29,947 bases of DNA. It comes from a virus. The notes beneath the pieces were generated by a model. That model was not told where the DNA came from. It saw only the letters and a program-made list of their open reading frames with translations, and did not search any database. This document shows, piece after piece, positions 3,166-18,853 of this stretch. The stretch is from UHGV virus genome UHGV-0175251; one strand, given 5' to 3'. The position numbers and the translations under genes are program-made. How positions within the stretch are numbered: position 1 is the first letter of the stretch; each line of letters opens with the position of its first letter.

Positions 3166-3168
3166 GTG

Positions 3169-3378: not shown

Positions 3379-4189
3379 ACGGGGAACTGGTGGATATTCA
3401 TGGGCAGCCTTTACGGCAAAGCATGGGATATTCTGGTGGTGGTTCCGGGTTCGGTGGGCAAATGGCAGAATGGCTGCCTGCACCGGAAAGTGCCGACGTG
3501 GCGCTCTTACCTTCCATTCATCTGGGTAACGCCCGCGCGGATGAGCTGGTCCGTAACAACGGTATTGCATCGAATGCAGTGGAAATTCATAAGGATCATA
3601 TTGTCGGGCACATGTTTCGTCTGAGTTACCGTCCCAACTGGCGCTGGCTGGGGATGTCGGAAGCAGATTCACATGCTTTTATTGAAGATGTTGAGGCGGC
3701 GTGGATGGAATACTGCGATCCGGTGTTTGGTACGATGGATGTGGAAGGGCGTCGTTCGTTTACCGAATTTATTCGTGAAGGGGTGGGGGTCCATACGTTT
3801 AACGGTGAAATTTTTGTCCAGCCCGTATGGGATGCGGAATCCACGTCATTATTCCGGACGAAATTCAAAACCATCAGCCCGAAGCGTGTCAGTACACCCG
3901 GTTATGGTACCGGCGATCGTTTTATGCGTGCCGGGGTGGAAATAAACCGACACGGAAAAGCGCTGGCCTACCATGTTCAGGATGATGACTGGCCCGGCTA
4001 CGGTGTCAGTAAATGGACACGAATTACGGCAACACTGCCTTCCGGACGACCGGGAATGATCCATGTGTTTCAGCCACAGGAAGACGGGCAGACCCGCGGG
4101 GCCAACCAGTTTTATTCTGTAATGGAGCGTCTCAAGATGCTCGACACACTGCAGGCCACGCAACTGCAGTCGGCGGTGGTTCGCGCCAT
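3375..4189 (+). CDS. B: portal protein (lambda gpB homolog), 5' segment; gene interrupted by the insertion at 4190
   Basis: GYSGGGSGFGG, GNARADELVRNNG, FNGEIFVQ and HVFQPQEDGQTRGANQFYSVMERLKMLDTLQATQLQSAVVRA match the lambda portal. Homology stops after codon RA at 4187; the frame then reads 17 unrelated codons to a stop at 4241. GTG start overlapping the W stop. Confidence 0.9.
4183..4189. repeat. left junction 7-bp direct repeat GCGCCAT (candidate attL overlap/core)
   Basis: The same 7 bp recurs at 15010-15016, exactly where portal homology stops and resumes. Flanking bases differ on both sides. Confidence 0.7.
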
Positions 4190-4317
4190 TTATGTCTATT
4201 ATCTCCCCGTAGTTGTCGCCACCATTCATCAACTCCACTAAAACCCTTGATATGTCTGGAATGTCGTTTTTTGTATTTATGATGACCGTTCATTACCTTT
4301 CGTGTTTTTCGCGGTTT

Positions 4318-4371
4318 TGTGTATTGCAATGTGTATTGCAAGTTGGCGTTTGGATGGGGTGTGTATTGCAA
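4318..4371. repeat. integrase arm-type repeats (left arm): three copies of TGTGTATTGCAA
   Basis: TGTGTATTGCAA at 4318-4329, 4330-4341 and 4360-4371. The 19-mer GTATTGCAATGTGTATTGC (4321-4339) is identical to 14916-14934 near the other end. Confidence 0.65.
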
Positions 4372-4390
4372 ATTGACGTGTAGGCTACAT

Positions 4391-5632: not shown

Positions 5633-5633
5633 T

Positions 5634-5891
5634 ATGTCAGTTTATTCACTTGTTGATGAAAAAGATTTTACTGCAATGCCGGATATTGATCGTGTCATTC
5701 GTGAAAAAGAATGCGTGGCACTTACTACGCTGGCAAATTCAACACGCTGGAAACTGGAAAAGACAGGTAAGTTCCCAAAACGTATTAAGATTGGTGAACG
5801 TGCCGCTGGCTATCGTCTCTCGGAGATTCAGGCGTGGATCCGTGGCGATTGGCACCCAGGATGGAAACCGGAAAAAACAAAACAGCAATAA
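5634..5891 (+). CDS. alpA: AlpA-family HTH regulator (possible excisionase)
   Basis: 85 aa, 1 nt after the int stop, GAGG SD. LANSTRWKLEKTGKFPKRIKIGERAAGYRLSEIQAWIR resembles the AlpA family. Confidence 0.7.
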   Translation: MSVYSLVDEKDFTAMPDIDRVIREKECVALTTLANSTRWKLEKTGKFPKRIKIGERAAGYRLSEIQAWIRGDWHPGWKPEKTKQQ

Positions 5892-5907
5892 CCAGGAGAT
5901 AAACACA

Positions 5908-5932
5908 GCCCCGCTCAATGCGGGGTTTTTTG
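5908..5932 (+). terminator. rho-independent terminator after alpA
   Basis: GCCCCGC / TCAAT / GCGGGG hairpin followed by TTTTTT. Confidence 0.75.
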
Positions 5933-5950
5933 TATGTGAGGTAAAAAGCG

Positions 5951-6529
5951 ATGAATAAAAATATTGCCGTGACGGGCAAAGGTGACGCTCGTCTAGTAAA
6001 AAAATTCTGTGATATTCGTGATCTGGTCGTTCTGCGCTTTGATGGTGTGAACGTTCGCGTGGTGTATCTGAACGGCGATCCGTGGTTTGTTGCAGTTGAC
6101 GTGTGCGCTGCGCTGGAAATTGTTGATCACAAGGTTGCGTTACGCCGTCTCGATGATGATGAAAAGGGGGAGTGTTTAATACCCACCCTTGGCGGAAATC
6201 AAACAATGCGAACTGTATGCGAGTCAGGTTTCTACAAACTAATAGCCCGTAGCCGCAAAGCAACGACGCCTGGCACGTTCGCCCATCGTTTCAGTAACTG
6301 GGTATTCAGAAATGTGATACCGGGTATCAGAAAAACGGGGGCTTATGGTATCCCGTGGGGCGCATTACAGGATTTTTCCCGCCGTAAAGAGCAATATCAG
6401 ATAAGTGCCAGCGAGAAGGGGAGGGAGCTACAGGCATGTAAGCGCAAAAAGCGTGAGCTGGAGGAAGAAGAAAAAAGGCTGATACGTGAATATCAGCCTG
6501 AGTTTTACTTTGGTGAGCGTATTCAGTAA
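5951..6529 (+). CDS. Bro-N domain protein (antirepressor-like)
   Basis: 192 aa; N-terminus LRFDGVNVRVVYLNGDPWFVAVDVCAALEI has the Bro-N / phage antirepressor signature; C-terminus charged. GAGGT SD before the ATG. Confidence 0.7.
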   Translation: MNKNIAVTGKGDARLVKKFCDIRDLVVLRFDGVNVRVVYLNGDPWFVAVDVCAALEIVDHKVALRRLDDDEKGECLIPTLGGNQTMRTVCESGFYKLIARSRKATTPGTFAHRFSNWVFRNVIPGIRKTGAYGIPWGALQDFSRRKEQYQISASEKGRELQACKRKKRELEEEEKRLIREYQPEFYFGERIQ

Positions 6530-6810
6530 CCACTCGCAGTGCTGATTATACGGTACATCGTGTTAACCGGGAAGCTACCCACCAGCAAGGCAAAATCTTC
6601 TGCTAAAAAATGATATATGGTCAGCCGTCCGGAAAGCATGAAATTTTACAAAAATGGAAAATGAAGATTTTTATTGTGCTGGTGGGTAAAAACAAAAAGC
6701 GCCCCGTTGCCGGAGCGCCTTTGTGAACAATTAACCTACTGCGCAAAAAATGAATCTGAGCAGTGGGATTATATCAACCGTGTGACGAAGCGCCACAATT
6801 GCCGGATAAC

Positions 6811-6842
6811 AGGCAAAACAAAGGCCACCCGCTACGGTGGCC
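6811..6842 (-). terminator. candidate intrinsic terminator for the leftward small-gene operon
   Basis: GGCCACC / CGCTAC / GGTGGCC perfect 7-bp stem; on the minus strand it is followed by TTTGTTTTG. Confidence 0.5.
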
Positions 6843-6960
6843 CTTCAACACAAGCTACACGTTATCCCCAACGCATGAGCATCACCAACAATGCCACATT
6901 TGCGGCTGGTGGGCAAAGCTTTAGCGGAATTTTTTCCCTGTTGCCTGGAGTGGGTAATGA

Positions 6961-7143
6961 TTACTTGTATCGCTTATTCCTGCACAAAACAGGGCTGCTC
7001 TTTTTGATGAAATCCTCAAGCAAAAAACACTCTGTTGATGCTCTTGGTAATTCTCTGGTGGAAGGATGGGGTTTTATCCCCCATTTTCGTTTACGTTCTT
7101 CCAGAAAGGAGGTGAGTATATCTAGTTTCTGTGCGTCCATCAT
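6961..7143 (-). CDS. hypothetical small protein (60 aa)
   Basis: Third ORF in a leftward series with regular 57-bp spacing; weak SD; no recognisable homology. Confidence 0.3.
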   Translation of the reverse strand: MMDAQKLDILTSFLEERKRKWGIKPHPSTRELPRASTECFLLEDFIKKSSPVLCRNKRYK

Positions 7144-7200
7144 TTTTCTCTTGGATACTTCTTTGTGCCATGGATCCTCACACCACGGCGCTGATAGTGG

Positions 7201-7398
7201 TTATTTCTGCTCTTCAACATCACCATGTCGTGATGTTTTCCAGGTATGCGACCCCATTTTTGTGCGCCTGTACTCTTTTAAGAACTTCTCAAGGCCAAAC
7301 GCACATGGCGCGAATCTCTCCTGTTCTTGTTCGCTTACCGCGTTTTTGCGTTGTTTTTTCCTGGATGAAGATAATTTCTTTAATGATTTGTCAGTCAT
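7201..7398 (-). CDS. hypothetical small basic protein (65 aa)
   Basis: Second ORF of the leftward series (MTDKSLKKLSSSRKKQRKNAV...); no recognisable homology. Confidence 0.35.
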   Translation of the reverse strand: MTDKSLKKLSSSRKKQRKNAVSEQEQERFAPCAFGLEKFLKEYRRTKMGSHTWKTSRHGDVEEQK

Positions 7399-7455
7399 CG
7401 TAGATACCTGTAACCCAGTGCGCCACAGTTCACCGCACCACGGCGCTGGTGATGG

Positions 7456-7635
7456 TTACTCCTGCTCTTTGGCCTTGCGACGCTGGCGGCGTTTGATCTC
7501 GCCTTGCATTGACGCAATGATGAATTGTGATGTGCTTTCGCCTGATTCTTTCACTGATTCCATGGCGTTTACTATTTCGTGTGGTACACGAGCCTTTAGA
7601 GCTTGTGATTTTGCGTTTGTTGTACCCGTTGCCAT
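7456..7635 (-). CDS. putative ribbon-helix-helix DNA-binding protein (candidate repressor)
   Basis: 59 aa from ATG at 7635-7633 with GAGG SD. ALKARVPHEIVNAMESVKE...TSQFIIASMQGEI fits a strand-helix-helix pattern. Transcribed divergently from the rightward operon. Confidence 0.5.
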   Translation of the reverse strand: MATGTTNAKSQALKARVPHEIVNAMESVKESGESTSQFIIASMQGEIKRRQRRKAKEQE

Positions 7636-7639
7636 TTCT

Positions 7640-7740
7640 ATTCCTCTGGTGGATTGGTGGGGAACAGTATACACAGAAAAAACACAAATAAAACTCTTGA
7701 CGTGGACCACACCTAAAACATATAGTGGGCCACACCTTAA
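7640..7740. promoter_or_regulatory. divergent promoter/operator region of the element
   Basis: Rightward TTGACG (7697-7702) and TATAGT (7721-7726), 18-bp spacer. Direct repeats TGGACCACACCT (7703-7714) and TGGGCCACACCT (7725-7736) overlap it. Leftward -10 TATACT on the minus strand around 7657-7662 precedes the RHH gene. Confidence 0.55.
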
Positions 7741-7834
7741 AATTATCAAGGCGCATAAATGCAAAGCCCCGCAAGTGTCGTTACCACTCGCAGGGCTTCT
7801 AACCACCAACGATAGAAAGAGTATCGAGGTAGCT

Positions 7835-8038
7835 ATGAGAAATCATACCACACACCCGCAAGGGCGGGACTCGCACAACCTGAATAAATACATCTGGCGT
7901 TTTATCGCCCTGAGCACGGCACAACCGCGCGTGATTACCATCGAGGCCACCAGCGAACAGGAAGCACGCCAGCAATCTCCGGCTGGCTGCGTGATGGTAT
8001 TCGCCGCCCGTATTCGCCAGGAGGTGCGCCATGATTAA
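7835..8038 (+). CDS. hypothetical protein (possibly Icd-like)
   Basis: 67 aa, first gene after the rightward promoter, GAGG SD. KYIWRFIALSTAQP...FAARIRQEVRH resembles Icd-like proteins of P4-type elements from memory only. Confidence 0.45.
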   Translation: MRNHTTHPQGRDSHNLNKYIWRFIALSTAQPRVITIEATSEQEARQQSPAGCVMVFAARIRQEVRHD

Positions 8039-8243
8039 CCTGTCACTTACCGACCTTAACCGCATTCAGTTTCGTGAGAAATTTACCGGGCAGTTGTTGG
8101 TTAATGTGGATAAAGGTCGCGTGGTGTGTAATTACCACCTGCCAGATGAAGCAATTGTCGCAACAAGGGAATCATTACAGGAACTCGCAGAGCGTGCCGG
8201 AATGATTAACGCGAATATTCAGGGGGTGAGACATGTGCAATAA
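8031..8243 (+). CDS. hypothetical protein (70 aa)
   Basis: ATG overlaps the upstream stop (translational coupling); part of the operon. Confidence 0.45.
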   Translation: MINLSLTDLNRIQFREKFTGQLLVNVDKGRVVCNYHLPDEAIVATRESLQELAERAGMINANIQGVRHVQ

Positions 8244-8496
8244 CCCCCGTCCGGACGCAGCCGCCGAAGCTATCAGAACGCTGATGCACGCGCTGATTGA
8301 TATTTCATGCACGGCAGCAACCGCAGAAAAACACATTACCATAGAGCCGGAATATACAGGGGCAATAATCCCGCATTCGCTGGCATACGCACAGCTTACC
8401 GCTGATATGGCACTGAATGAGGCCAAAGCTATCCTGATTGCTGATTGTGAAAATGGGGGGGGGTGGTTATGCGTGATGATCGTTTTAATGCCCTGA
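8233..8496 (+). CDS. hypothetical protein (87 aa)
   Basis: AGGGGG SD; overlaps neighbours; no recognisable homology. Confidence 0.4.
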   Translation: MCNNPRPDAAAEAIRTLMHALIDISCTAATAEKHITIEPEYTGAIIPHSLAYAQLTADMALNEAKAILIADCENGGGWLCVMIVLMP

Positions 8497-8702
8497 AACA
8501 GGAATTTGATGGCGCACCGGAAGATACAGATATTGCGCTGTTATGTGTTGCTGACATGGTAAAAGCTGCATGTTTTTTACTGGAAACCGCCGAACATTCA
8601 GGAACGGGTAGCGATATTCTCAATATTGCGTCGGACTATGCGGAATATGTGGCAGAGACGCGTTACAGAAGTAAATTCCCGGAGGGGGTGAGCCATGCAT
8701 GA
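8469..8702 (+). CDS. hypothetical protein (77 aa)
   Basis: G-rich SD; first in-frame ATG at 8469 (track start 8463 is GTG). Confidence 0.4.
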   Translation: MRDDRFNALKQEFDGAPEDTDIALLCVADMVKAACFLLETAEHSGTGSDILNIASDYAEYVAETRYRSKFPEGVSHA

Positions 8703-8928
8703 TATTTACAATGACACAGTAGACCATGCATACAGCGCACTTGCTTACAGTGAAAACATGCTTGAAATATTGCGCTTATGGCTTGAAACGCTTGGCGATA
8801 ATGAAAGAGATAAACGCAACAGCAATATTGCAACAGCATTAATAACGCTTCTTGAGCCTGTAATAAATGAACTGCAAGAAATAGACATCTTGCACGACAG
8901 ATATAAAGAGCCACACACCGGAGAATAA
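8695..8928 (+). CDS. hypothetical protein (77 aa)
   Basis: GGAGGGGG SD; start overlaps the upstream stop. Confidence 0.45.
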   Translation: MHDIYNDTVDHAYSALAYSENMLEILRLWLETLGDNERDKRNSNIATALITLLEPVINELQEIDILHDRYKEPHTGE

Positions 8929-8933
8929 AAACC

Positions 8934-9233
8934 ATGAAAAAGAAAAATTCTGGCTTTACTGCCAGCGGCCCCGCTCGGCCTGAAATCCGCCCAGGCGATA
9001 TTTTCCGGGATAACTACGGCGGCACGGTAACGATTAAAAGTATTGCCGGACGGTGCGTTACTTACCGCCGTGATGGGTACAGCTACGACTGCGTGATGCC
9101 TGTTTATCAGTTCCGGCGTGATTTTTCGCTGGTACAGGCCACACCACGCAGACAGCCCACCAGCAACGCAAAGGCACGGGCAAATATTCAGAAAATGAAA
9201 AACATGATTAACGCATTCAGGGGTAAAAAATGA
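8934..9233 (+). CDS. hypothetical protein (99 aa)
   Basis: GGAGAA SD; its stop overlaps the start of the replication gene (ATGA). Confidence 0.45.
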   Translation: MKKKNSGFTASGPARPEIRPGDIFRDNYGGTVTIKSIAGRCVTYRRDGYSYDCVMPVYQFRRDFSLVQATPRRQPTSNAKARANIQKMKNMINAFRGKK

Positions 9234-10645
9234 AACTGGCACCGAACTTAAAAAAACAGCCGCACGACAAAATGACCGAAGTCATTATTTTTGCGGGTAG
9301 TGATGCCTGGGCGCACGCGAAACAGTGGCAGGAACAGGACGGGCGACTTGCTGGCGACAACGTGCCGCCTGTATGGCTTGGAGACAACCAGCTTGACGAA
9401 CTGGCAGACCTGAAAATCATCGATGATGGTCGCTATTGTGTCCGGCTGTACAAGGCAGGCCACATCAAGCCGTCAAATATTAATGCCATCGGGCAAAAGC
9501 TGGCGGCGGCAGGTGTACGGGATGCGAATTATTACCCTGAGGGAATGCACAGCCAGAAGCTGGAGAACTGGCACGACTACCTGCAACGGATCCGCGAACA
9601 GGCAGAGCGCGGGGAAATACTTACTGACGAGCAATACAGCCAGCGAAAAACCACACTACCAATGAGCATTGGGTCCGCAGGATACGACACACAGCTTGAT
9701 TATGTCGTTAAGGGCGTGATTCCGGCTAATTCGTTGTGCAGCACATACGGCGCGAGCGGTTCCTATAAATCGTTCCTCGCGTGTTCCTGGGCGTGTCATG
9801 TTGCCACGGGTCGCCACTGGGGAGGCCGCAGGGTGGCGCATGGTTCGGTGATGTATGTTGTCGGTGAAGGGGGTATAGGTGTCCCCCGCCGTATCAAGGC
9901 ATGGGAAATCGTTAATGATGAACGGGTGGAAAATTTGTACCTGGTAAACCGCCCGATTTTTCCGGCTGTCCCGCTTGATGTTGATGAAATGGTTATCGCG
10001 TCCCGCCAGGTTGAACGGGAAACGGGTAAACCGGTACGCATGATTATTCTGGATACGCTGGCGCGTTGCTTTGGTGGTAATGATGAAAATGACGCGCGGG
10101 ATATGGGGGCGTTTATCCGTGGATGTGACGAACTGAAACGACGCACAGGGGCCACGGTGCTGGTGGTTCACCATTCCGGCAAGGATGAAACAAAGGGGGC
10201 ACGTGGTTCCAGTGCATTTCGTGCATCTCTGGACGCTGAATACCGTATTCGCCGTGAAGGTGCGGACAGTGAAGCCCTGGTTATCTCCTGCACCAAAATG
10301 AAGGACGCGGAGGAACTGAAAGAGGCTGCATATGATTTACGCGTGGTGGAGCTTTTTACCGACGCTGACAAGGAGTTAATCACGTCGCTGGTGGTTGTGG
10401 ATAAGCCGCGCCCACCAGTTGAACTGGAGCGCATCGAGGAAGCCGGGAACAAGACGGAGAATCACGCCGCGCTATGGGGCTGTATCCGTTCACGCACACA
10501 GCGCGGCGATAAATGCACTATCCCGTTATTGCGTGATGATATGAAAAAGCTGGGGTATGAGATGAAGCACTTTAGTCGCTGGTTACGCAAGCTGGAAAGT
10601 GACGACGTAATCGCTATTGACGGCGATGATGTTCACCCGATGTAA
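9230..10645 (+). CDS. replication initiator / RepA-like (AAA_25-type) helicase
   Basis: 471 aa. Deviant Walker A GASGSYKS, Walker B-like RMIILDTLARCF and VLVVHHSGKDETKG motif typical of RepA-like RecA-fold helicases. Iterons immediately downstream. Primase activity cannot be judged from sequence alone. Confidence 0.7.
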   Translation: MKLAPNLKKQPHDKMTEVIIFAGSDAWAHAKQWQEQDGRLAGDNVPPVWLGDNQLDELADLKIIDDGRYCVRLYKAGHIKPSNINAIGQKLAAAGVRDANYYPEGMHSQKLENWHDYLQRIREQAERGEILTDEQYSQRKTTLPMSIGSAGYDTQLDYVVKGVIPANSLCSTYGASGSYKSFLACSWACHVATGRHWGGRRVAHGSVMYVVGEGGIGVPRRIKAWEIVNDERVENLYLVNRPIFPAVPLDVDEMVIASRQVERETGKPVRMIILDTLARCFGGNDENDARDMGAFIRGCDELKRRTGATVLVVHHSGKDETKGARGSSAFRASLDAEYRIRREGADSEALVISCTKMKDAEELKEAAYDLRVVELFTDADKELITSLVVVDKPRPPVELERIEEAGNKTENHAALWGCIRSRTQRGDKCTIPLLRDDMKKLGYEMKHFSRWLRKLESDDVIAIDGDDVHPM

Positions 10646-10850
10646 AAAGTGGGGAACAAAAGTGGGGAGAGTGGGGAATTTAACAAAAAATCAACGTTAC
10701 TCCCCACTTTCCCACCTGTATATACCCAAAAAAGTGGGGAGTAAAAAACACATTGAAAAACATCACGTTAGAATCACAAAAAAACGAGGTGGGGAGCAAG
10801 TGGGGAATTTTAAAAAGTGGGGAACAAAAGTGGGGAGTGGTGGGGAATGA
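10646..10850. repeat. iteron array: about 10 copies of GTGGGGA (candidate ori)
   Basis: GTGGGGA at 10649, 10662, 10671, 10734, 10789, 10800, 10817, 10830, 10840 and inverted (TCCCCAC) at 10701, set in A-rich DNA directly after the rep stop. Confidence 0.75.
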
Positions 10851-11098
10851 ACAGAAAAACCAGAGATAAAACAGTGCCAAAATATCGCGCATTAGACATG
10901 ACAGAGCACGCCTTAAAGGTGGCAATCAGAACGATAGACCGCCACGCCGGGGAAGGATACGCGAAAGCACATCCCGAACTGATAAGCGCATTCATGGCCA
11001 CGACGGCGGCAAACTTTGCCACGCTGACAGAACGGGAGATTGCCGAAGCGGAACAGGTGACAACCATCAACGTTAAAACCGGAGAGCAAACAGCATGA
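10847..11098 (+). CDS. hypothetical protein (83 aa)
   Basis: ATG at 10847 at the end of the iterons; overlaps the SSB start. Confidence 0.4.
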   Translation: MNRKTRDKTVPKYRALDMTEHALKVAIRTIDRHAGEGYAKAHPELISAFMATTAANFATLTEREIAEAEQVTTINVKTGEQTA

Positions 11099-11517
11099 CA
11101 GCACAGATAGCGGCTTACGGGCGGCTGGTGGCTGACCCACAGTTAAAGACCACCAGCAAAGGGACACAAATGGCGATGGCGAGTATGGCGGTTCCCCTGC
11201 CGTGCAGCCAAGCAGATGACGGAACGGCGACGATGTGGTTATCCGTCCTGGCGTTTGGCAGACAGGCCGACGCACTGGCAAAACACCACAAAGGCGAACT
11301 GGTGAGCGTGGCGGGTAACATGCAGGTAAGCCAGTGGACAGGCCAGAACGGCGAAACGCGGCAGGGCTGGCAGGTTATCGCAGACAGCGTAATCAGTGCC
11401 AGAACGGCGCGACCGGGCGGCAAAAAAGGCCAGCAGGGCCAGGCTACTGACGCACTGAACAGGGCAAAACAACAGGCGGGAAATGATGATCCGTACTGGG
11501 ATAACATACCGTTTTAA
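11095..11517 (+). CDS. ssb: single-stranded DNA-binding protein
   Basis: 140 aa with OB-fold-like pattern (GRLVADPQL...W.SV.AFG..A..L.KH.KGELVSVAG...W....G..R....V) and an acidic C-terminal tip ...DPYWDNIPF resembling the E. coli SSB DDDIPF tail. Confidence 0.65.
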   Translation: MTAQIAAYGRLVADPQLKTTSKGTQMAMASMAVPLPCSQADDGTATMWLSVLAFGRQADALAKHHKGELVSVAGNMQVSQWTGQNGETRQGWQVIADSVISARTARPGGKKGQQGQATDALNRAKQQAGNDDPYWDNIPF

Positions 11518-11533
11518 GCAACGAGTGACAGAA

Positions 11534-11597
11534 GCCGGGATTTTTCCCGGCTTTTTTGTGCGCAAAAAAAATCCCCCGGGATGAGGTTCCGGGGGAT
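11534..11597. terminator. pair of hairpins: + strand terminator (11534-11558) and a minus-oriented one (11571-11597)
   Basis: GCCGGGA / TTTTT / TCCCGGC then TTTTTT; followed by AAAAAAAA, ATCCCCCGG / 9-nt loop / CCGGGGGAT. Confidence 0.7.
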
Positions 11598-11674
11598 TTC
11601 ACGCCGCTAACGTGATTAGCGCTGAATGACTCTGTGGTACAAGGAGTAAAACCACGGCATCATGATTTCATGAT

Positions 11675-11723
11675 TTGCAACAACAGTCAATGTCATTGCA
11701 AAAAATGCAATGATAATTAAAAT
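11675..11723 (+). promoter_or_regulatory. candidate promoter with overlapping palindromic operator for the capsid module
   Basis: TTGCAA (11696-11701), 16-bp spacer, TAAAAT (11718-11723). Perfect palindrome CATTGCA-AAAAA-TGCAATG (11694-11712) overlaps the -35. Confidence 0.45.
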
Positions 11724-11775
11724 CATGAATGACTTTTCGTTATGTTTATTTTTTAGTCAAAGAGGAATCTCATTT

Positions 11776-11982
11776 ATGGGAACACAGAAGCCGGGCGGTG
11801 TATCCGTGTACATCAGCCCCGATATTATCGCCGCACTTAATGCGCGCTTTGAGGAGAACGCAGAGGCAGGAAAAAAAATCGGCCTTGATCCGTTGTGCCT
11901 GGTGAAGCCGTCAGTCGGCTGGATGGTACGCAGCCATTTACGCGCTGCGCTTGGTATGAATCAGCCTCATGGGGGTGAGTAA
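11776..11982 (+). CDS. hypothetical small protein, possibly ribbon-helix-helix
   Basis: 68 aa, AAGAGG SD. VSVYISPDIIAALNARFEENAEAGKK...WMVRSHLRAAL is compatible with an RHH fold. Stop overlaps the capsid-homolog start. Confidence 0.4.
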   Translation: MGTQKPGGVSVYISPDIIAALNARFEENAEAGKKIGLDPLCLVKPSVGWMVRSHLRAALGMNQPHGGE

Positions 11983-13037
11983 TGACAGCGCCGCAACTGG
12001 TAAGCACACCAACGCTACTGAAAAATATCGGGCGCGAAGATGTGCCGGAATTTAAATTTAATCCACTCTTTACTACGTTGTTCTTTCCGAACGTCGCTAC
12101 TTTCAGCACCAGAGATATTGCACTTGATACGCTGGATATTGAAAACGTGGTCATGAGTCCGTTTTGTTCTCCAATGTCAGGCAGCCAGGTTATGCGTGAC
12201 AAAGGTTTCACAACGAACACGTTCACGCCGGGTTATATGAAGCCCAAACACGTTATTGATCCCACCAAAACAATCATGCGCATGGCTGGAGAACAGATCG
12301 GCAATGGTCAGTCTTCCCCGGCACTACGCCGCGTAAAAATGGTTCACGACAGCCAGAAAAAACAGCTTGCTGCCATCAAAGCGCGTGTTGAATGGCTGGC
12401 GGTCAATGCCATCACAACAGGCCGTAACGTTATTGAAGGCGAAGGCATTGAGCGTTATGAAATTGACTGGGGATTACCCGCAACCAATCATATTACGCAG
12501 GCTGGCGGGAAAGAATGGTCAAAACAGGATGCCGAAACGTTTGATCCGATAAGCGACATTGAGGCTTACGCTGATTTTTCCAAAGGTACGGTAAATATTA
12601 TCGTCATGGGTGGCGAAGCCTGGCGTATTTTGCGCTCGTTCCGTCGATTCCGCGAACTCCTGGACACGCGTCGCGGTTCAAACTCGTCACTTGAACTTGC
12701 GCTAAAAGATTTGGGCGGCGTTGTCAGCTTCAAGGGGTATCTCGGTGATGTGGCGCTCGTGGTTTATTCCGGTCGTTATGACGACGAATACGGGCAGCAG
12801 CAATATTTCCTGAAACAAAACATGCTGGTTTTCGGCAATACCGAAAATAAAGGCCTTGTTGCTTATGGTGCCATCATGGATCAGGACGCGGCACGCGAGG
12901 GGTTTTCTGAGGGGATGTACTACCCGAAAAATTATATCGTACCTGGCGATCCGGCGATTGAATACGTGCAGACGCACAGCGCCCCGCAGCCAGTACCCGT
13001 GGATATTGGTCGCTTTGTTACCGTCGAAGTGAAATAA
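11982..13037 (+). CDS. major capsid protein homolog (lambda gpE-like), element-encoded
   Basis: 351 aa. Shares FTPGY.KPKH, NITQAGG[KR]EWSKQ[DN]A[ED]TFDP, REKLDTRRGS, ALKDLG.VVSFKGY, GNT...G..YGAI.D and YPK motifs with the prophage E protein (17825-18853) and with lambda gpE. Confidence 0.9.
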   Translation: MTAPQLVSTPTLLKNIGREDVPEFKFNPLFTTLFFPNVATFSTRDIALDTLDIENVVMSPFCSPMSGSQVMRDKGFTTNTFTPGYMKPKHVIDPTKTIMRMAGEQIGNGQSSPALRRVKMVHDSQKKQLAAIKARVEWLAVNAITTGRNVIEGEGIERYEIDWGLPATNHITQAGGKEWSKQDAETFDPISDIEAYADFSKGTVNIIVMGGEAWRILRSFRRFRELLDTRRGSNSSLELALKDLGGVVSFKGYLGDVALVVYSGRYDDEYGQQQYFLKQNMLVFGNTENKGLVAYGAIMDQDAAREGFSEGMYYPKNYIVPGDPAIEYVQTHSAPQPVPVDIGRFVTVEVK

Positions 13038-13047
13038 AGGGGATCGT

Positions 13048-13377
13048 ATGCCAACACCTTACACGCAATTCCTTTCCGGCACGCAGGAACTGGTCAGCAC
13101 GCTGGCCTGTTTTGCCAGTGCCGGAGAAATTAAAGCGAGAACTCCGCTGATGCAGAACGGCGCGGGCCTGATGGTTGAGTGGGACGGTACACCCGGTAAG
13201 GCGGTGTATCTGACCATATCGGACATTAACACGGCCACAAAAAACCGCGCACAGGTTTATAAGTGCGGGGTTTTTAATATCGATGAAATTAACTGGCCTG
13301 ATACAGCGGACACGTTCGAGAAAAAAGTGTCGGCTTTTGTTGGTTCCGGTATTTCCGTGCAGCCTTTAGGGCAATAA
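13048..13377 (+). CDS. head decoration protein homolog (lambda gpD-like), element-encoded
   Basis: 109 aa directly after the capsid homolog. TPLM, WDG and AFVGSGIS motifs shared with the prophage D (17420-17755). Confidence 0.7.
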   Translation: MPTPYTQFLSGTQELVSTLACFASAGEIKARTPLMQNGAGLMVEWDGTPGKAVYLTISDINTATKNRAQVYKCGVFNIDEINWPDTADTFEKKVSAFVGSGISVQPLGQ

Positions 13378-13391
13378 TTTTGTGGTGATTT

Positions 13392-13817
13392 ATGACTGAG
13401 AAAGCAAATTCAACCAGAGCATTGATCATGGCACTGCCTGAGGCGCAGAAATACCCGACGCTTGCGGAAAATCTCGCAAATAATGGCGCATCACTGACAG
13501 AAGCCCGAACGGTGCTTACTGCAAAGGCTGAGAGTGATAAACAGCGCATAGAGGGTATCAAGGCGTTACCGCTGGCATCAAAATACCCTGAGTTCACCAG
13601 TAAGCTGATTGAGTGTGGTTCTGAAGTAATGACAGTAACCTATGCACAAACGTTACTGGCTGCCGTGGATGCCCAGGCAATGATGCAGGAAAAGAAAACG
13701 GCTTTTCTGTTTGAAGCGTACATGGAAAAGCACAGCCCGAAATGTGTTGGATCAGCAGCCGGTGATGGCAACGCCGGACTGACCGAAGATGAAAAGCTGT
13801 TGCTGTCTGTTAAGTAA
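13392..13817 (+). CDS. scaffold-like protein (Nu3-like repeats), element-encoded
   Basis: 141 aa. Two repeat-like units (ALPEAQKYPTLAENL..., ALPLASKYPEFTSKL...) and C-terminus TAFLFEAYMEKH...GDGNAGLTEDEKLL resemble the repeat unit and C-terminus of the prophage C/Nu3 (...VTLFERFMAQH...GTAGNGEEELL). Confidence 0.6.
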   Translation: MTEKANSTRALIMALPEAQKYPTLAENLANNGASLTEARTVLTAKAESDKQRIEGIKALPLASKYPEFTSKLIECGSEVMTVTYAQTLLAAVDAQAMMQEKKTAFLFEAYMEKHSPKCVGSAAGDGNAGLTEDEKLLLSVK

Positions 13818-13830
13818 CTGAAATGAACGT

Positions 13831-13863
13831 TCGCGAGGCTGGCAAGGTCTCGCGATTTTTTTT
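13831..13863 (+). terminator. rho-independent terminator after the capsid module
   Basis: TCGCGAG / 11-nt loop / CTCGCGA followed by eight Ts. Confidence 0.8.
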
Positions 13864-13896
13864 GTATCCGTAACGGTGGTGATCGCCCCAATTTTC

Positions 13897-13975
13897 ACGG
13901 GTCCTTTCCAGAACCAGAAACACCGCGGGGCGGCAGACGCGCAAAAAAGCGCTATTTATGACGCTTTCCGGGAAA
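13897..13975 (+). promoter_or_regulatory. element-borne cos site
   Basis: ACGGGTCCTTTCC (13897-13909), GGGGCGGCAG (13927-13936) and GCTATTTATGA (13951-13961) reproduce the prophage cos motifs at 509/540/564 with nearly identical spacing (30 vs 31 and 24 vs 24 nt). Flanking sequence differs. Confidence 0.75.
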
Positions 13976-14028
13976 GGGTACACCACCACCACTTGATTAA
14001 TATTTAATCGCATTATTAAGGTAACGTT

Positions 14029-14469
14029 ATGAATAATAAAGATTGTTTTGTTAGTCAGCAGGAAATAGCAGAACATTTCAAGGTCAACAGAACCACTATT
14101 CGCGCATGGACCAAACAGGGCATGCCGTATCTTGATGCGGATCGCGGAAAGTCCGGCGGTTATCACATCGGACACACATTATTCTGGTGCATGGGTAAAA
14201 GTCATCTTGATGCTATTGAGTACCACGGAGAAACCAGCGCACTGGAAAAGATTATGGTTGCCAGGTTGATTTCATTAGAGCGCGACGAGTATTTCAGTGA
14301 AGAAACAGAACAGCGATTTGATAATGGTCTGCAGATTTACGGGTACTCGCCGGAAGATGTGAGCAAGGCACGAAATAAAATGGCTGGCTTTCTGGCTGGG
14401 TGGCGTCATGCCGTAGCCGTTCGCCGTGAGCATCTGCAACAATCTGTAGTTACAGAGCAGGAAAACTAA
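14029..14469 (+). CDS. small terminase-like protein (Nu1-like N-terminal HTH)
   Basis: 146 aa just downstream of the element cos. N-terminus VSQQEIAEHFKVNRTTIRAWTKQGMPYLDADRGKSGG parallels Nu1 ([24 protein letters not shown]...GGSKG). The C-terminal half is unrelated to Nu1. Confidence 0.65.
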   Translation: MNNKDCFVSQQEIAEHFKVNRTTIRAWTKQGMPYLDADRGKSGGYHIGHTLFWCMGKSHLDAIEYHGETSALEKIMVARLISLERDEYFSEETEQRFDNGLQIYGYSPEDVSKARNKMAGFLAGWRHAVAVRREHLQQSVVTEQEN

Positions 14470-14476
14470 TAAGTAT

Positions 14477-14573
14477 GCAATACAACAACCGCGTATTTTT
14501 GTTAAACCATTTGATTTAATTGGCATTTTTGGAGCCATAACATCAAAAAAACACCCTCAGGTTGTTGTATTGC
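14477..14573. repeat. 14-bp perfect inverted repeat GCAATACAACAACC / GGTTGTTGTATTGC separated by 69 bp
   Basis: 14477-14490 and 14560-14573; contains the GTATTGC motif also present in the arm-type repeats. Confidence 0.5.
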
Positions 14574-14751
14574 TTTCAGTTTTCTCTTAGTTATCAAATG
14601 GATATAACAAACAATTAAACAACAACCACCCCCTCAAAAAATCTCATAAACAGCGCGTTTTTGCGCGTATGGCTACCCCCGGTGTTTTATTTTCCAGGAA
14701 GGACCCGCCACAATTACGGCATTGTTTTCCATCACCACGGAGGCCATGACA

Positions 14752-14937
14752 ATGACCGAAGCCGAAATGCTCAAAATGATTCGCCGCGTTACCGGATCCA
14801 GCAAGACAGCAGGCAAACAGGAGACCACGCAGCCGGACAGCGTGATAGCCGAAAATTACGCGCGTGTGGTGGCTGAGGTGATGCGCCGTGACGGTATTCA
14901 CAAGCAACAATTTGCGTATTGCAATGTGTATTGCTAA
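14752..14937 (+). CDS. hypothetical small protein (about 61 aa)
   Basis: GGAGG SD at 14739-14743; the 3' end runs into the arm-type repeats. Coding status uncertain. Confidence 0.3.
   Translation: MTEAEMLKMIRRVTGSSKTAGKQETTQPDSVIAENYARVVAEVMRRDGIHKQQFAYCNVYC
14913..14936. repeat. integrase arm-type repeats (right arm)
   Basis: TGCGTATTGCAA + TGTGTATTGCTA; the 19-mer GTATTGCAATGTGTATTGC at 14916-14934 is identical to 4321-4339. Confidence 0.65.
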
Positions 14938-15009
14938 CCCTCCAAACGGGGGAAATATGCAAACATAACATATTGTTTTGTCTTTTTATTTTTTCGTATC
15001 TTTTCATAA

Positions 15010-15016
15010 GCGCCAT
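15010..15016. repeat. right junction 7-bp direct repeat GCGCCAT (candidate attR overlap/core)
   Basis: Identical to 4183-4189; portal homology resumes exactly here. Confidence 0.7.
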
Positions 15017-15773
15017 GTATGCCGCCACGATTGAATCCACACTGGATTCGGAAAAAGCGTTTGAATATATCGCCGGGGTGGGAGATGGAGGTAAAAATCC
15101 CCTGAACACCATCATGAAAGGCTACGCGCGTTATTACGCCACCAATACGGTAAAACTGGGCGGGGTCCGTATTCCGCATCTTTACCCGGGAGATTCACTG
15201 AATCTGCAGACAGCCCAGAATGCGGATAATGGTTTTTCTGAACTGGAAAAGGCGCTGTTACGTTACATTGCTGCCGGACTGGGTGTGTCGTATGAGCAGC
15301 TTTCCCGGGATTATTCACAGGTCAGTTATTCCAGTGCCAGGGCATCCGCCAATGAGTCGTGGCGGTATTTTATGGGAAAACGAAAATTTGTGGCCAGTCG
15401 CCTGGCGTCACAGATGTTTGCCTGCTGGCTGGAGGAAGCCCTTATTCGTGGTGTGATCCGTCCGCCGAAATCCCGTTTCTCATTCTGGGAGGCTCGTTCC
15501 GGGTGGTGCCGTGCCGAGTGGATTGGTGCCGGTCGTATGGCGATTGATGGCCTTAAGGAAGTGCAGGAAGCGGTGATGCGCATTGAAGGCGGCCTGAGTA
15601 CATACGAGAAAGAGCTGGCCCTGATGGGGGATGACTATCAGGAGATTTTCCGCCAGCAGCTACGGGAAACTCAGGAGCGACAGGCTGCCGGTCTTCCGCG
15701 TCCGGTCTGGATAAAGAACGCGTTTCAACAGCAGATCCGACAGACAACGGGAGAAAAAGGCGATGCGCTGTAA
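15017..15773 (+). CDS. B: portal protein (lambda gpB homolog), 3' segment
   Basis: (S)AMYAATIES..., GVRIPHLYPGDSLNLQTAQNADNGF, LLRYIAAGLGVSYEQLSRDYSQVSYSSARASANESW and GRMAIDGLKEVQEAVM match the C-terminal half of the lambda portal. Joined to 3375-4189 it gives a continuous 523-codon ORF. Confidence 0.9.
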
Positions 15774-17379
15774 TTTATCACATATTGCCGCGATGGCATT
15801 TAATGAGCCGCTTTTACTGGAACCCGCCTATGCGCGGGTTTTCTTTTGCGCACTGGGTAAGGAGATGGGGGCGGGCAACCTTGCCGTTCCGCAGCAGGCC
15901 GTTCAGCTTGATGCCGATGGTATGCAGCTGGCGGTTACCGATTATATGACTGGTGGTCCGCGTCCGGTAAAGAGTTACCAGGTGAAAAATGGTATTGCCA
16001 TTCTGCCGGTGAGCGGCACGTTGGTACATAAAATGGGTACCCTGCGGCCATATTCCGGTATGACCGGTTATGACGGTCTGACTGCCCGTCTTAAGTCAGC
16101 GGTGAACGACCCGGATGTACGCGGCATTTTACTGGATATCGACAGTCCGGGTGGTCAGGCTGCCGGGGCGTTTGACTGTGCTGACATGATTTACCGTCTG
16201 CGGGAACAGAAGCCCGTGTGGGCGCTGTGTAATGACATGGCCTGTTCAGCCGCCATGTTGCTGGCGGCGGCCTGTACGCGTCGGCTGGTCACGCAGACGG
16301 CAAAAATTGGTTCGATTGGTGTGATGATGGCGCACACCAGTTACGAGAAACAACTGGCACAGGAAGGCGTGGATATCACGCTGATTTACTCCGGGCAGCA
16401 CAAGGTTGACGGCAACAGTATTCAGGCGTTGCCGACAGGTGTGCGTGCGGATTTTCAGCGCCGTATTGATGAGGCCCGCCGGATGTTTGTCGACAAGGTG
16501 GCGCTTTATACGGGGCTGAGTTCAGAGGCGGTGATGAATACCGAGGCTGCCGTTTATGACGGTCAGGCAGGCATTGATATAGGCCTGGCTGATCAACTGA
16601 TTAATGCTGCAGATGCCGTTGATGTAATGGTTTCTGCTCTGAACGACTCTGTTACACAGGAGAATACGATGACAACAAAAAATCTCACCGTTGCTGAAGC
16701 GGTGTCCCAGGAAAATCAGCGCGTGATGGGGATCCTGAATTGTCAGGAGGCGAAAGGACGCGAAAAACTGGCGCAGATGCTGGCAGGTCAGCAGGGAATG
16801 TCAGTTGAGCAGGCAAAAACATTACTGGCGGCAGCACCGGTTGCCGGTACTGACAGCACAGGCGATCAGATTATGGCACTTCTGGAAGCAAAAGGGCGTG
16901 AACAACTGGCACGGACGCTGGCTGAACAGCCGGGAATGACGGTGGAGCAGGCGAAAACGTTACTGGCAGCGGCACCGGTTTCCGGTGCGGCAAGTACCGG
17001 CGAGCAGATTATGGCACTTCCGGAAGCAAAAGGGCGTGAACAACTCGCACAGGCGCTGGCTGAACAGCCGGGAATGACGGTGGAACAGGCGAAAATGCTA
17101 CTGGTAGCGGCACCGGCAACCGGTACGGCAAGTACCGGCGATCAAATTATTGCGTTGCCGGAAGCAAAAGGACGCGAAAAACTGGCACAGGCGCTGGCTG
17201 AACAACCTGGAATGACAGTGGAGCAGGCGAAAACGCTGCTGGCAGCTGCGCCATCAGTATCGCAACCGTCACAGGTAACACTTTTTGAGCGCTTCATGGC
17301 ACAGCATGCCGCCAGTGCCGTTTCCGGTGGCGGAACTGCCGGGAACGGGGAAGAAGAACTGCTGATGAGTATGCCGTAA
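15763..17379 (+). CDS. C: head protease/scaffold fusion protein (lambda gpC homolog)
   Basis: 538 aa. N-terminus HIAAMAFNEPLLLEPAYARVFFCAL and ILPVSGTL, PYSGMTGY, GILLDIDSPGG, GSIGVMMAH, ITLIYSGQHKVDGN match gpC. C-terminal part contains tandem scaffold repeats. Confidence 0.9.
   Translation: MRCNLSHIAAMAFNEPLLLEPAYARVFFCALGKEMGAGNLAVPQQAVQLDADGMQLAVTDYMTGGPRPVKSYQVKNGIAILPVSGTLVHKMGTLRPYSGMTGYDGLTARLKSAVNDPDVRGILLDIDSPGGQAAGAFDCADMIYRLREQKPVWALCNDMACSAAMLLAAACTRRLVTQTAKIGSIGVMMAHTSYEKQLAQEGVDITLIYSGQHKVDGNSIQALPTGVRADFQRRIDEARRMFVDKVALYTGLSSEAVMNTEAAVYDGQAGIDIGLADQLINAADAVDVMVSALNDSVTQENTMTTKNLTVAEAVSQENQRVMGILNCQEAKGREKLAQMLAGQQGMSVEQAKTLLAAAPVAGTDSTGDQIMALLEAKGREQLARTLAEQPGMTVEQAKTLLAAAPVSGAASTGEQIMALPEAKGREQLAQALAEQPGMTVEQAKMLLVAAPATGTASTGDQIIALPEAKGREKLAQALAEQPGMTVEQAKTLLAAAPSVSQPSQVTLFERFMAQHAASAVSGGGTAGNGEEELLMSMP
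16669..17379 (+). CDS. nu3: scaffold protein (Nu3-like), nested in frame in the 3' part of C
   Basis: Internal ATG at 16669 preceded by AGGAG; product carries the repeats and the GILNCQEA motif conserved with lambda Nu3. Nested start is by analogy with lambda. Confidence 0.5.
   Translation: MTTKNLTVAEAVSQENQRVMGILNCQEAKGREKLAQMLAGQQGMSVEQAKTLLAAAPVAGTDSTGDQIMALLEAKGREQLARTLAEQPGMTVEQAKTLLAAAPVSGAASTGEQIMALPEAKGREQLAQALAEQPGMTVEQAKMLLVAAPATGTASTGDQIIALPEAKGREKLAQALAEQPGMTVEQAKTLLAAAPSVSQPSQVTLFERFMAQHAASAVSGGGTAGNGEEELLMSMP
16747..17275 (+). repeat. four tandem 138-bp (46-aa) repeats within C/Nu3
   Basis: Protein repeats EAKGRE[KQ]LAQ.LAEQPGMTVEQAKTLLAAAP..G.ASTGDQIMALP occur four times (last truncated); nucleotide units begin near 16747, 16885, 17023 and 17161. 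Confidence 0.8.
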
Positions 17380-17419
17380 GCGGGGATCCGTGATTCAGAT
17401 AAATCAGGAGACTGAGAAA

Positions 17420-17755
17420 ATGATTAAAACCACCACAGAAAAGCGCGCGGACGGGCGCATTTTTGCCGGAAGCGATCCGGTATATACCGCAACAGGTACC
17501 AGTGGTATCAGTGTTGCCACGCCTTCACTGACGCCACTGATGCTGGATGACGCCAGCGGAAAACTGGTGGCATGGGATGGTCAGAAAGCCGGAACGGCTG
17601 TGGGGGTGCTGGTACTGGCGCTGGCCGGGACCGAGCCCACACTGACGTACTACAAAAGCGGTACGTTTGCCACCGAATCGCTGGTCTGGCCGGATTCGGT
17701 GGATGCGGTGAAAAAAGCCAACGCGTTTGTGGGAAGTGCCATCAGCCACGCCTGA
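17420..17755 (+). CDS. D: head decoration protein (lambda gpD homolog)
   Basis: 111 aa from ATG 17420 with AGGAG SD; TPLMLD..S.KLVAWDG and YKSGTF...AFVGSAIS match gpD. Confidence 0.9.
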   Translation: MIKTTTEKRADGRIFAGSDPVYTATGTSGISVATPSLTPLMLDDASGKLVAWDGQKAGTAVGVLVLALAGTEPTLTYYKSGTFATESLVWPDSVDAVKKANAFVGSAISHA

Positions 17756-17777: not shown

Positions 17778-17809
17778 AACGGGTCGTGATGCGGCCCGTT
17801 TGTGTTTTT
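17778..17809 (+). terminator. stem-loop between D and E (attenuator/terminator-like)
   Basis: AACGGGTCG / TGATG / CGGCCCGTT (9-bp stem with one G-U) followed by a T-rich tract. Confidence 0.5.
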
Positions 17810-17824
17810 AAAGGAAAGTCAATT

Positions 17825-18853
17825 ATGGGGTTATTTACCACGCGTCAGTTGCTCGGCTACACCGAGCAGAAAGTGAAATTCCGTGCGCTGTTTCTGGAGC
17901 TGTTTTTTCGTCGTACGGTCACTTTCCATACTCAGGAAGTGATGCTGGATAAAATCACCGGAAAAACACCGGTTGCGGCATATGTGTCTCCGGTTGTGTC
18001 AGGTAAGGTACTGCGCAGTCGTGGTGGTGAAACCCGCGTGTTACGCCCCGGCTATGTTAAACCAAAACACCGGCTGGATTATCAGCAGGCGGTGGAGCGT
18101 CTTCCGGGGGAAGATCCGGCCCGTCTTAATGACCCGGCCTACCGTCGCCTGCGTATTCTGACTGACAACCTGAAACAGGAAGAGCAAGCGATTGTGCAGG
18201 TGGAAGAAATGCAGGCGGTCAGCGCTGTTCTGCAGGGTAAGTACACCATGAGCGGTGAACAGTTTGAGACGGTGGAAGTGGATTTTGGTCGTTCTGCCGC
18301 CAATAACATTACGCAGGCAGGGGGACGCGAATGGTCAAAACAGAATGCTGACACCTTTGATCCGACGCATGATCTGGATGCGTACTGCGATTTTGCTTCC
18401 GGTACCATCAATATTGCGATTATGGACGGTACTGTCTGGCGTATGCTGAACGGTTTTAAGCTGTTTCGTGAAAAACTGGATACCCGCCGTGGCTCAAAAT
18501 CTGAACTGGAAACCGCGCTGAAAGATCTGGGTTCCGTGGTTTCTTTTAAAGGTTATTACGGTGATCTGGCCATCATGGTGGCGAAAACAACGTATGTTGA
18601 TGAAAACGGGGATGAGCAGCGTTATCTGCCGGAAGGCACACTGATTCTTGGAAACACTCAGGTGGAGGGTGTCCGTTGTTATGGCGCAATCCAGGATAAC
18701 CAGGCGCTGAGTGAAGGGATCACCTCTGCAATTCGTTATCCGAAACACTGGTTAGAGGTGGGGGACCCGGGGTGCGAATATACCATGACGCAGTCTGCGC
18801 CGTTGATGGTGTTGCCGGATCCGGACGCGTTTGTGGTAGTTCAGGTGAAATAA
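17825..18853 (+). CDS. E: major capsid protein (lambda gpE homolog)
   Basis: ATG at 17825; AAYVSPVVSGKVLRSRGG, PGYVKPKH, QVEEMQAVSAVLQGKYTMSGEQFE and NITQAGGREWSK match lambda gpE closely. Confidence 0.95.
   Translation: MGLFTTRQLLGYTEQKVKFRALFLELFFRRTVTFHTQEVMLDKITGKTPVAAYVSPVVSGKVLRSRGGETRVLRPGYVKPKHRLDYQQAVERLPGEDPARLNDPAYRRLRILTDNLKQEEQAIVQVEEMQAVSAVLQGKYTMSGEQFETVEVDFGRSAANNITQAGGREWSKQNADTFDPTHDLDAYCDFASGTINIAIMDGTVWRMLNGFKLFREKLDTRRGSKSELETALKDLGSVVSFKGYYGDLAIMVAKTTYVDENGDEQRYLPEGTLILGNTQVEGVRCYGAIQDNQALSEGITSAIRYPKHWLEVGDPGCEYTMTQSAPLMVLPDPDAFVVVQVK

Follow-up and report, generated by a model that had tools for sequence, protein, structure and literature searches.

The window analysed here, the whole 29,947-nucleotide stretch of the virus genome UHGV-0175251 read on one strand, is the late region of a lambda-like prophage whose portal gene is split by an insert, and within that insert positions 11776-13817 form one operon of four tightly packed plus-strand open reading frames (ORFs). 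Behind a small first gene, these encode a major capsid protein, a head-decoration protein and a Nu3-like, putatively scaffolding protein, in an element that can be assigned with high confidence to the phage-inducible chromosomal islands (PICIs) of Gram-negative bacteria, and specifically to their helper-embedded form, with the capsid operon as its 'late zone'. A block of the same order is known from the Escherichia coli island EcCICFT073 (genes c1498-c1503). The operon and its flanking signals are as follows.

11534-11557, plus strand: terminator ahead of the operon, hairpin GCCGGG-N6-CCCGGC followed by T6, read from the sequence; position kept in the EcCICFT073 lineage
11694-11712: palindrome CATTGCA-A5-TGCAATG, overlapping the -35 element
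11696-11723, plus strand: promoter-like TTGCAA-16-TAAAAT, overlapped by the palindrome
11776-11982, plus strand: first operon gene, 68 aa, phrog_3255, c1498-like
11982-13037, plus strand: satellite major capsid protein, 351 aa, gpE type with HK97 fold, PF03864 Phage_cap_E (E 3.4e-46)
13048-13377, plus strand: satellite head-decoration protein, 109 aa, gpD family, PF02924 (HDPD), phrog_49
13392-13817, plus strand: Nu3-like protein, 141 aa, no Pfam family and no protease domain, a repeat unit in two copies followed by a C-terminal tail
13831-13865, plus strand: intrinsic terminator ending the operon, 10-bp stem and T8

The capsid protein reaches 158 bits against a Pfam cut-off of 22.9 over residues 25-349, matches the structures 7VI9 and 3BQW, and is 45% identical to lambda gpE, while its neighbour scores 32.8 bits against a cut-off of 29.1 for HDPD, matches phrog_49 ('head decoration') at E 1.4e-18 and finds lambda gpD structures at E ~5e-9. 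The first gene, omitted from an earlier sequence-only reading of this DNA, encodes a 68-aa protein whose AlphaFold2 model is of low confidence (pLDDT, the predicted local distance difference score, of 63) and whose sequence pattern hints at a ribbon-helix-helix fold. PADLOC and NCBIfam searches gave no match for the module.

The sequence-only reading had described gpE-like, gpD-like and Nu3-like genes that are clearly related to, and divergent from, the copies in the surrounding prophage, and Pfam, PHROG and pairwise matches at these ORFs bear this out. In pairwise comparison the capsid protein is 46% identical to prophage E over 327 aa (E 5e-103), the decoration protein 41% identical to prophage D over 74 aa (E 1e-12), and the Nu3-like protein 36% identical to the C-terminus of prophage gpC over 135 aa (E 3e-11), the part of gpC so matched being its final 130 residues, which make up Nu3. 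Near-identity at the DNA level, which would have pointed to recent duplication of the prophage genes, was looked for and is absent: alignment to the prophage copies is limited to a single 280-bp stretch of 66% identity and megablast yields no match, so that recent duplication is rejected and the original observation stands.

The description of the operon as promoter-driven is plausible. The promoter-like site and its palindrome are conserved in the EcCICFT073 lineage, in which the proteins differ by 35%, and terminators bracket the operon, but the site scores no better than chance in a promoter scan. The palindrome is probably an operator for a regulator, and that regulator is possibly the product of the 68-aa first gene.

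The third gene calls for separate treatment. Its product aligns with phrog_53 ('head maturation protease') at the C-terminus (positions 502-578 of 583, E 1.1e-8) and is built of two copies of a unit of about 40 residues, roughly IMxLPEAxxxxxLAxxLAxxPGMTVxxAxxLLAAAP, with a conserved tail behind them. Lambda Nu3 has the unit once, the satellite protein twice and the resident prophage at least four times, the gpC/Nu3 gene of the prophage carrying 3.6 tandem copies of a 138-bp (46-aa) repeat at 16746-17246; scaffold length thus varies with the number of units. Direct pairwise comparison with lambda Nu3 gives E 0.1, a word-indexed homologue search with the Nu3-like protein returns near-identical proteins only, and tblastn of the protein against 50,697 phage records finds nothing. 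The AlphaFold2 model is all-helical (pLDDT 75); weak fold matches to 'prohead protease' and 'peptidase S49' were not significant and were discarded. The remote homology of the 141-aa protein thus rests on pairwise, PHROG and profile-profile evidence, and the label 'Nu3-like' is reasonable but not firmly established. RefSeq annotates the gene as 'hypothetical protein', and the literature searched contained no paper tying a PICI gene to Nu3; its scaffold-like assignment may therefore be a small addition to knowledge.

Orthologues, age and selection of the shell genes

With high confidence, the operon is the orthologue of c1498-c1501 in EcCICFT073. The tail of that island comprises, in the same order, a 68-aa gene, a 351-aa capsid protein, a 111-aa decoration protein, a 137-aa protein, cos, RppA and a small gene, and the window proteins are 63% (68-aa gene), 65% (capsid), 49% (decoration), 31% (third gene) and 83% (Rpp, redirecting phage packaging) identical to their counterparts. 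The EcCICFT073 capsid protein c1499, deposited as PDB 3BQW, has the same 351 aa as that of the window, and the two elements share the promoter/operator sequence as well as the int-alpA-Bro-replication-late layout. EcCICFT073 differs in being chromosomal and adjoining phoQ, in its integrase, in a strongly diverged third gene and in a PerC-like gene upstream of the module.

In the published description, c1499 is named a capsid protein and c1500 a head-decoration protein, and the supplement lists c1501 (137 aa) with no function (Fillol-Salom et al. 2018, PMC6092414). Furthermore, 'capsid morphogenesis' is one of the five core PICI components in SatelliteFinder and is more frequent in Proteobacteria (PMC10085698), and a capsid gene is present in 21 of 29 reference Gram-negative PICIs (PMC10111431). 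Given these records and the EcCICFT073 module, a capsid set on this backbone is the rule and not an oddity, and its portrayal as unusual on a P4-type integrase backbone has to be withdrawn: the finding is real but not new, and the gene set is a known, functionally unexplained feature of E. coli satellites.

The capsid protein belongs to an old satellite lineage. Among the 50,697 phage records none encodes a capsid protein more than 48% identical to it. In a large protein collection, relatives at 49-98% identity occur in Escherichia, Salmonella, Edwardsiella, Serratia, Lelliottia, Cedecea and others, and the genomic context was looked up for four capsid relatives: at 76% identity (Edwardsiella) the gene belongs to an int/alpA/primase island that is itself inserted in a portal gene, at 57% (Serratia) to an int/alpA/replicase-type island adjoining fis, at 49% (Salmonella) to such an island within a prophage tail region, and at 46% to a complete Nu1-A-W-portal-protease-D-E phage module. 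A locus search with the single capsid protein gave no confirmed locus, and one with the capsid alignment gave four (the collection holding one genome per species). Satellites of this kind are also embedded in the phage E gene at loci in Cedecea and Kosakonia, and the related loci L005 and L008 are inserted in capsid gene E. Of the close relatives in complete E. coli genomes, L001 interrupts a portal gene and L002 the gene for the large terminase, while L010 is chromosomal, at tRNA-Pro; in L002 and L010, which carry other integrases, the block recurs at 97-100% protein identity, and L010 has TerS instead of Rpp.

In a neighbour-joining tree of capsid proteins, satellites split from phages with 100% bootstrap support (200 replicates), and gene order follows the same division, running from capsid to decoration in every satellite examined and from decoration to capsid in every phage. 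Although lambda draws on the same Nu3, D and E families, its order is C/Nu3-D-E against E-D-Nu3-like in the satellite, and lambda Nu3 is nested in the protease gene whereas the satellite Nu3-like gene stands alone. All four operon genes show dN/dS of 0.1-0.3 in close and distant pairs, including about 0.2-0.3 for the 68-aa gene.

Relative to lambda, changes peculiar to the satellites affect the N-arm of the capsid protein and, in the decoration protein, both termini: the satellite capsid proteins have a four-residue N-arm insertion in common, and the satellite decoration proteins combine a shortened, distinctive N-terminus with a C-terminal VQPL extension. In lambda capsid structures (e.g. 7VIK), the gpD N-terminus pairs with the E-loop and N-arm of gpE. 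Since the clade-specific changes fall in mutually contacting parts, they suggest that capsid and decoration proteins are co-adapted partners, forming lattices of the satellite capsid protein. Judged by these comparisons, the module is an old, selected and matched shell set and no recent capture from a phage.

The capsid-decoration pair alone is present in all satellites examined; a Nu3-like gene occupies third place in the window, L002, L010, CFT073 and L009. The portal-embedded locus L012 of Edwardsiella tarda carries, at 7789-9908, a 70-aa gene, a capsid gene and a decoration gene; up to the point where the 3' part of the portal gene resumes, the locus showed neither a Nu3-like gene nor one for Rpp or TerS, and L012 may represent a minimal version of the module.

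The satellite element and its helper prophage

The remaining features of the element and of the prophage around it are listed in the order of the window.

711-1277: Nu1, prophage
1246-3165: large terminase A, prophage
3166-3378: W, prophage
3375-4194, plus strand: portal gene 5' part (lambda B type), to the attL core GCGCCATTTATG; alignment to the intact portal ends ...AVVRA
4183-4194: attL core GCGCCATTTATG
4318-4341, plus strand: doubled TGTATTGC motif, right arm of attP, ~131 bp from the core; third copy at 4362-4371
4391-5632, plus strand: tyrosine integrase, Arm-DNA-bind_3 (PF13356) and Phage_integrase (PF00589)
5625-5891, plus strand: AlpA regulator/excisionase, PF05930 (E 3.8e-15)
5951-6529, plus strand: Bro-N / anti-repressor-like protein, PF02498, phrog_2593
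8934-9233, plus strand: DUF4222 gene
9230-10645, plus strand: RepA-type AAA_25 replicase
10643-10858, plus strand: iteron-like repeats AAAAAGTGGGGAACAAAAGTGGGGAG, 3-4 copies directly 3' of the replicase gene, repeat families D2 and D4
11095-11517, plus strand: single-strand DNA-binding protein (SSB), PF00436 (E 3.9e-16)
13897-13975, plus strand: satellite cos, with cosQ-like, cosN-like and adjacent boxes in common with the prophage cos at 510-600
14029-14469, plus strand: Rpp protein, matching the RppC structure 6HLK (E 4.8e-34)
14913-14936, plus strand: doubled TGTATTGC motif, left arm of attP, ~81 bp from the core
15010-15773, plus strand: attR core GCGCCATGTATG (core at 15010-15021) and portal gene 3' part
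15763-17379, plus strand: gpC protease/Nu3, prophage copy used in the comparison
17390-17755, plus strand: gpD, prophage copy used in the comparison
17786-18853, plus strand: gpE, prophage copy used in the comparison

After E the prophage continues with FI, FII, tail tube, tape measure, L and I; a truncated prophage without J was considered and rejected, gene J extending past the window end. In alignment, the first 271 portal codons stop near 4190 and the remainder restarts at 15013, with near-identical 12-bp cores, GCGCCAT(T/G)TATG, at both edges of an insert of 10,827 bp, and removal of the insert in silico brings a 523-aa portal ORF back in frame. The N-terminal portal fragment corresponds to positions 2-237 of the Phage_portal_2 profile and the insertion point to about 238-241, so that the site is, with high confidence, at or near the published B:Phage_portal_2:241. 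The satellite is co-oriented with the interrupted gene; as it splits the helper portal gene, it would have to excise before any head forms, leaving the helper predictably unable to make heads until the satellite has left.

The order within the element (int, AlpA, Bro-N, small genes, DUF4222, RepA, iterons, SSB, capsid operon, cos, Rpp and one further small gene) reproduces the integration, Bro, replication and late layout of Gram-negative PICIs. An integrase gene followed by a co-oriented alpA stands at one end, the element encodes its own AAA_25 RepA-type replicase with a putative origin just downstream, and capsid, decoration and Nu3-like genes are combined with Rpp in 10,827 bp, within the 10-20 kb expected of a PICI. 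The iteron repeats are the probable replication origin of the satellite, and a position just 3' of the replicase gene is typical of Gram-negative PICIs (PMC6092414). The Rpp assignment follows from homology to both RppA and RppC, the binding of TerS being a prediction.

Insertion inside a prophage portal gene makes the element a helper-embedded PICI as described in 2023. In addition to the split portal and its in-silico restoration, the doubled TGTATTGC motif, reported as unique to helper-embedded PICIs, that is, to satellites within the late genes of lambdoid prophages, is present at a spacing that agrees with the published values of ~81 bp upstream and ~132 bp downstream of the attP centre (PMC10111431). 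Described members (Tommasini, Mageeney and Williams 2023, e.g. Eco567.11capE) have in common with the window element a four-zone organisation, a size of ~11 kb, an own capsid gene and the doubled motif; the 11capE type interrupts gene E, whereas the present element interrupts the portal gene, and its integrase is 89% identical to that of the portal-embedded L001. The words 'decoration', 'scaffold' and 'Nu3' are absent from the text of that paper (PMC10111431).

When the prophage proteins Nu1, A, W, portal, gpC, D, E and tail proteins were compared by tblastn with the element (4190-15012), only the capsid and Nu3-like genes matched, and Pfam and PHROG scans agree that the element is without portal, protease, TerL and tail genes. 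The sequence-only reading was right in this respect, and equally in having the element depend on the helper for portal, protease, large terminase and tails, none of which it encodes. The same absences, together with that of head-tail connectors, reject a capsid-forming PICI (cf-PICI). Such islands (e.g. EcCIEDL933) have a related int/alpA/replication backbone and an own capsid clade separate from phage capsids, but they also encode protease, portal, head-tail connectors, HNH, TerS and TerL, depend on the helper for tails alone and form small capsids; the window element lacks those genes and relies on Rpp and the helper terminase. A P4-like satellite is likewise rejected, as Pfam and PHROG scans found no Sid, Psu, Delta, epsilon or alpha primase and the resemblance to P4 is limited to integrase type and alpA.

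The satellite and prophage cos sites were located by comparing prophage and element, the lambda cosN sequence itself being absent. They share ACGGGTCCTT, CGGGGCGGCAG, GCGCTATTTATG and TTTCCGGGAAA and diverge on the right side, where cosB would be, a pattern that fits cutting of both sites by the helper TerL with recognition altered by Rpp. Cos-like boxes between capsid module and packaging gene also occur in several related loci.

Between Bro-N and the replication genes, 6530-8030 is a zone of small genes on both strands, exemplified on the minus strand by a YlcI/YnfO-like 59-aa ORF at 7456-7635; a 51-nt imperfect direct repeat occupies 7164-7214 and 7419-7469, and a 454-aa plus-strand ORF at 6674-8038 looks spurious. 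C4/isrK immunity RNAs have been reported for some PICIs; an Rfam scan of the entire window found no family, these included.

Possible roles of the shell proteins

The mechanism proposed here, to which slightly less than an even chance is given, is that the satellite shell proteins build lambda-size or mixed heads together with the portal and protease of the helper. On prophage induction the satellite would excise, restoring the portal gene, and replicate by means of its own RepA and iterons, while a regulated promoter belonging to the capsid operon would drive its expression. On the helper portal, satellite capsid protein would then assemble with the aid of its short cognate scaffold, the helper gpC protease would mature the shell and the cognate decoration trimer would stabilise it; Rpp would redirect the helper terminase to the satellite cos, lambda-size (T=7) or mixed shells would take about four genome copies, and helper tails would complete the particles. 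Four copies of the element amount to 43.3 kb, which is within the lambda packaging window. Possession of its own set would make the satellite independent of the helper shell proteins E, D and Nu3, and the benefit would be a wider helper range and tolerance of helpers with interrupted or incompatible late genes. The set would then be an advantage, not a requirement, which fits the missing laboratory phenotype.

Identity and mechanism taken together, this account is considered probable, yet several observations weigh against it. The presence of satellite shell proteins in particles is so far a proposal. In EcCICFT073, neither transfer nor interference was altered when c1499 or c1500 was deleted, and no phenotype was found (PMC6092414); c1503 was the only gene downstream of ori that inhibited lambda when expressed singly from a plasmid (PMC6739421); the island's Rpp binds the helper TerS and redirects packaging to the island (PMC6739421). 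The scaffold-like gene is not a constant member of the set, the third gene being an AlpA-like helix-turn-helix gene in L001, L005-L008, L013 and L014, and the Edwardsiella element having capsid and decoration genes without a third gene. In the EcCICFT073-type island L009 of E. coli EPSSH018 (11396-12450), the capsid gene is frameshifted, with decoration and Nu3-like genes intact, which indicates that the module can decay in nature. Moreover, the Nu3 homology itself appears to be of moderate strength, and this counts on the same side: hhalign against a lambda-type gpC profile from which the resident gpC was excluded places the match in the C-terminal region at E 7.6e-5 and a probability of 62%, phmmer against 1.8 billion representatives returned the 141-aa protein itself and a fragment only, and a fold search of the model in BFVD and PDB gave none with E below 2.

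The alternative that survives best, although unlikely, is the redirection of capsid size that the sequence-only reading had favoured, in which a lower T number, dictated by satellite capsid protein and short scaffold, would leave room in the head for one or two 10.8-kb genomes while shutting out that of the helper. It has parallels in SaPIbov5 Ccm, a homologue of the helper capsid protein, and in SaPI1 CpmB, a scaffold-like homologue of the C-terminal part of the helper scaffold, both of which join helper capsid assembly; small heads are known from PmCI172, a Gram-negative PICI that also encodes a capsid homologue, and the satellite scaffold, with 141 aa and two units, is short beside the helper's ~237 aa and at least four. 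However, Ccm and CpmB are unrelated in sequence to the window module, act on the helper capsid protein to give small capsids and have no decoration partner, and for the E. coli module no small capsids are on record. The published data on the orthologous module speak against this alternative, since with lambda and EcCICFT073 the packaged DNA was entirely phage-sized, with no island-monomer band (PMC6092414); besides the neutral deletions, Rpp fully explains interference, a lambda-size head fits four element copies, and many satellites of the clade keep capsid and decoration genes without a Nu3-like gene. The claim of small capsids is therefore not upheld.

A reservation attaches to these assays, in that the EcCICFT073 islands used carried c1501::tetA or c1499::cat (PMC6092414). 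The former marker lies, by name, within the orthologue of the Nu3-like gene, so that the intact set may never have been assayed and small shells could have been overlooked in the disrupted derivatives, which leaves size redirection unlikely rather than excluded. Were an intact module to build its own smaller shells on helper portal and protease, with one or two genomes each, this widespread class of E. coli PICIs would be a missing intermediate between classical PICIs and cf-PICIs, but that is unlikely.

Less probable still is interference by poisoning, in which satellite shell proteins would reduce phage yield, as a form of host defence, by co-assembling with the helper or other invading lambdoid phages or by titrating scaffold, portal or protease away from them. 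PICIs in general do interfere with their helpers, 36-46% identity to gpE, gpD and Nu3 would be enough to engage the same partners, and the operon has what may be a regulated promoter of its own; but the c1499 and c1500 deletions gave no relief of lambda interference, inhibition on single expression was confined to c1503 (Rpp), no PADLOC defence model matched, and a cognate decoration protein is hard to explain in a pure poison. Very improbable, finally, is a spare copy, that is, helper late genes captured as back-up for an interrupted helper gene or persisting as decaying relics: PICIs are documented to acquire late genes, those embedded in gene E have been suggested to carry a back-up (PMC10111431), one homologue is frameshifted and the deletions are without phenotype, but it is the portal gene that this element interrupts and none of E, D and C, chromosomal PICIs (at tRNA-Pro and at the phoQ-adjoining site of EcCICFT073) contain the same block, and limited identity to the helper genes (36-46%), a deep satellite-only clade with inverted gene order and purifying selection all oppose it.

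Compared with what was already on record, the present analysis is modestly new in four respects: the reading of the third gene, in one sub-lineage, as a stand-alone Nu3-like gene; the conservation of the promoter/operator; the evidence for a deep, satellite-specific capsid/decoration pair that looks co-adapted and has its gene order inverted; and the recognition that the modules in published tests were disrupted. A large proportion of E. coli genomes contain capsid genes of Gram-negative PICIs and satellite finders treat them as a defining component, yet the only functional study reported no phenotype; taken together, the age and purifying selection of the set, the apparent co-adaptation, the Nu3-type gene and the disruption of the assayed modules turn that 'no phenotype' into a specific and feasible experiment. 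If satellite proteins are not in the shells, the module is an ordinary, already catalogued feature. If it is true that they form particle shells, helper dependence would be narrower than assumed, which would bear on which phages mobilise virulence-carrying islands.

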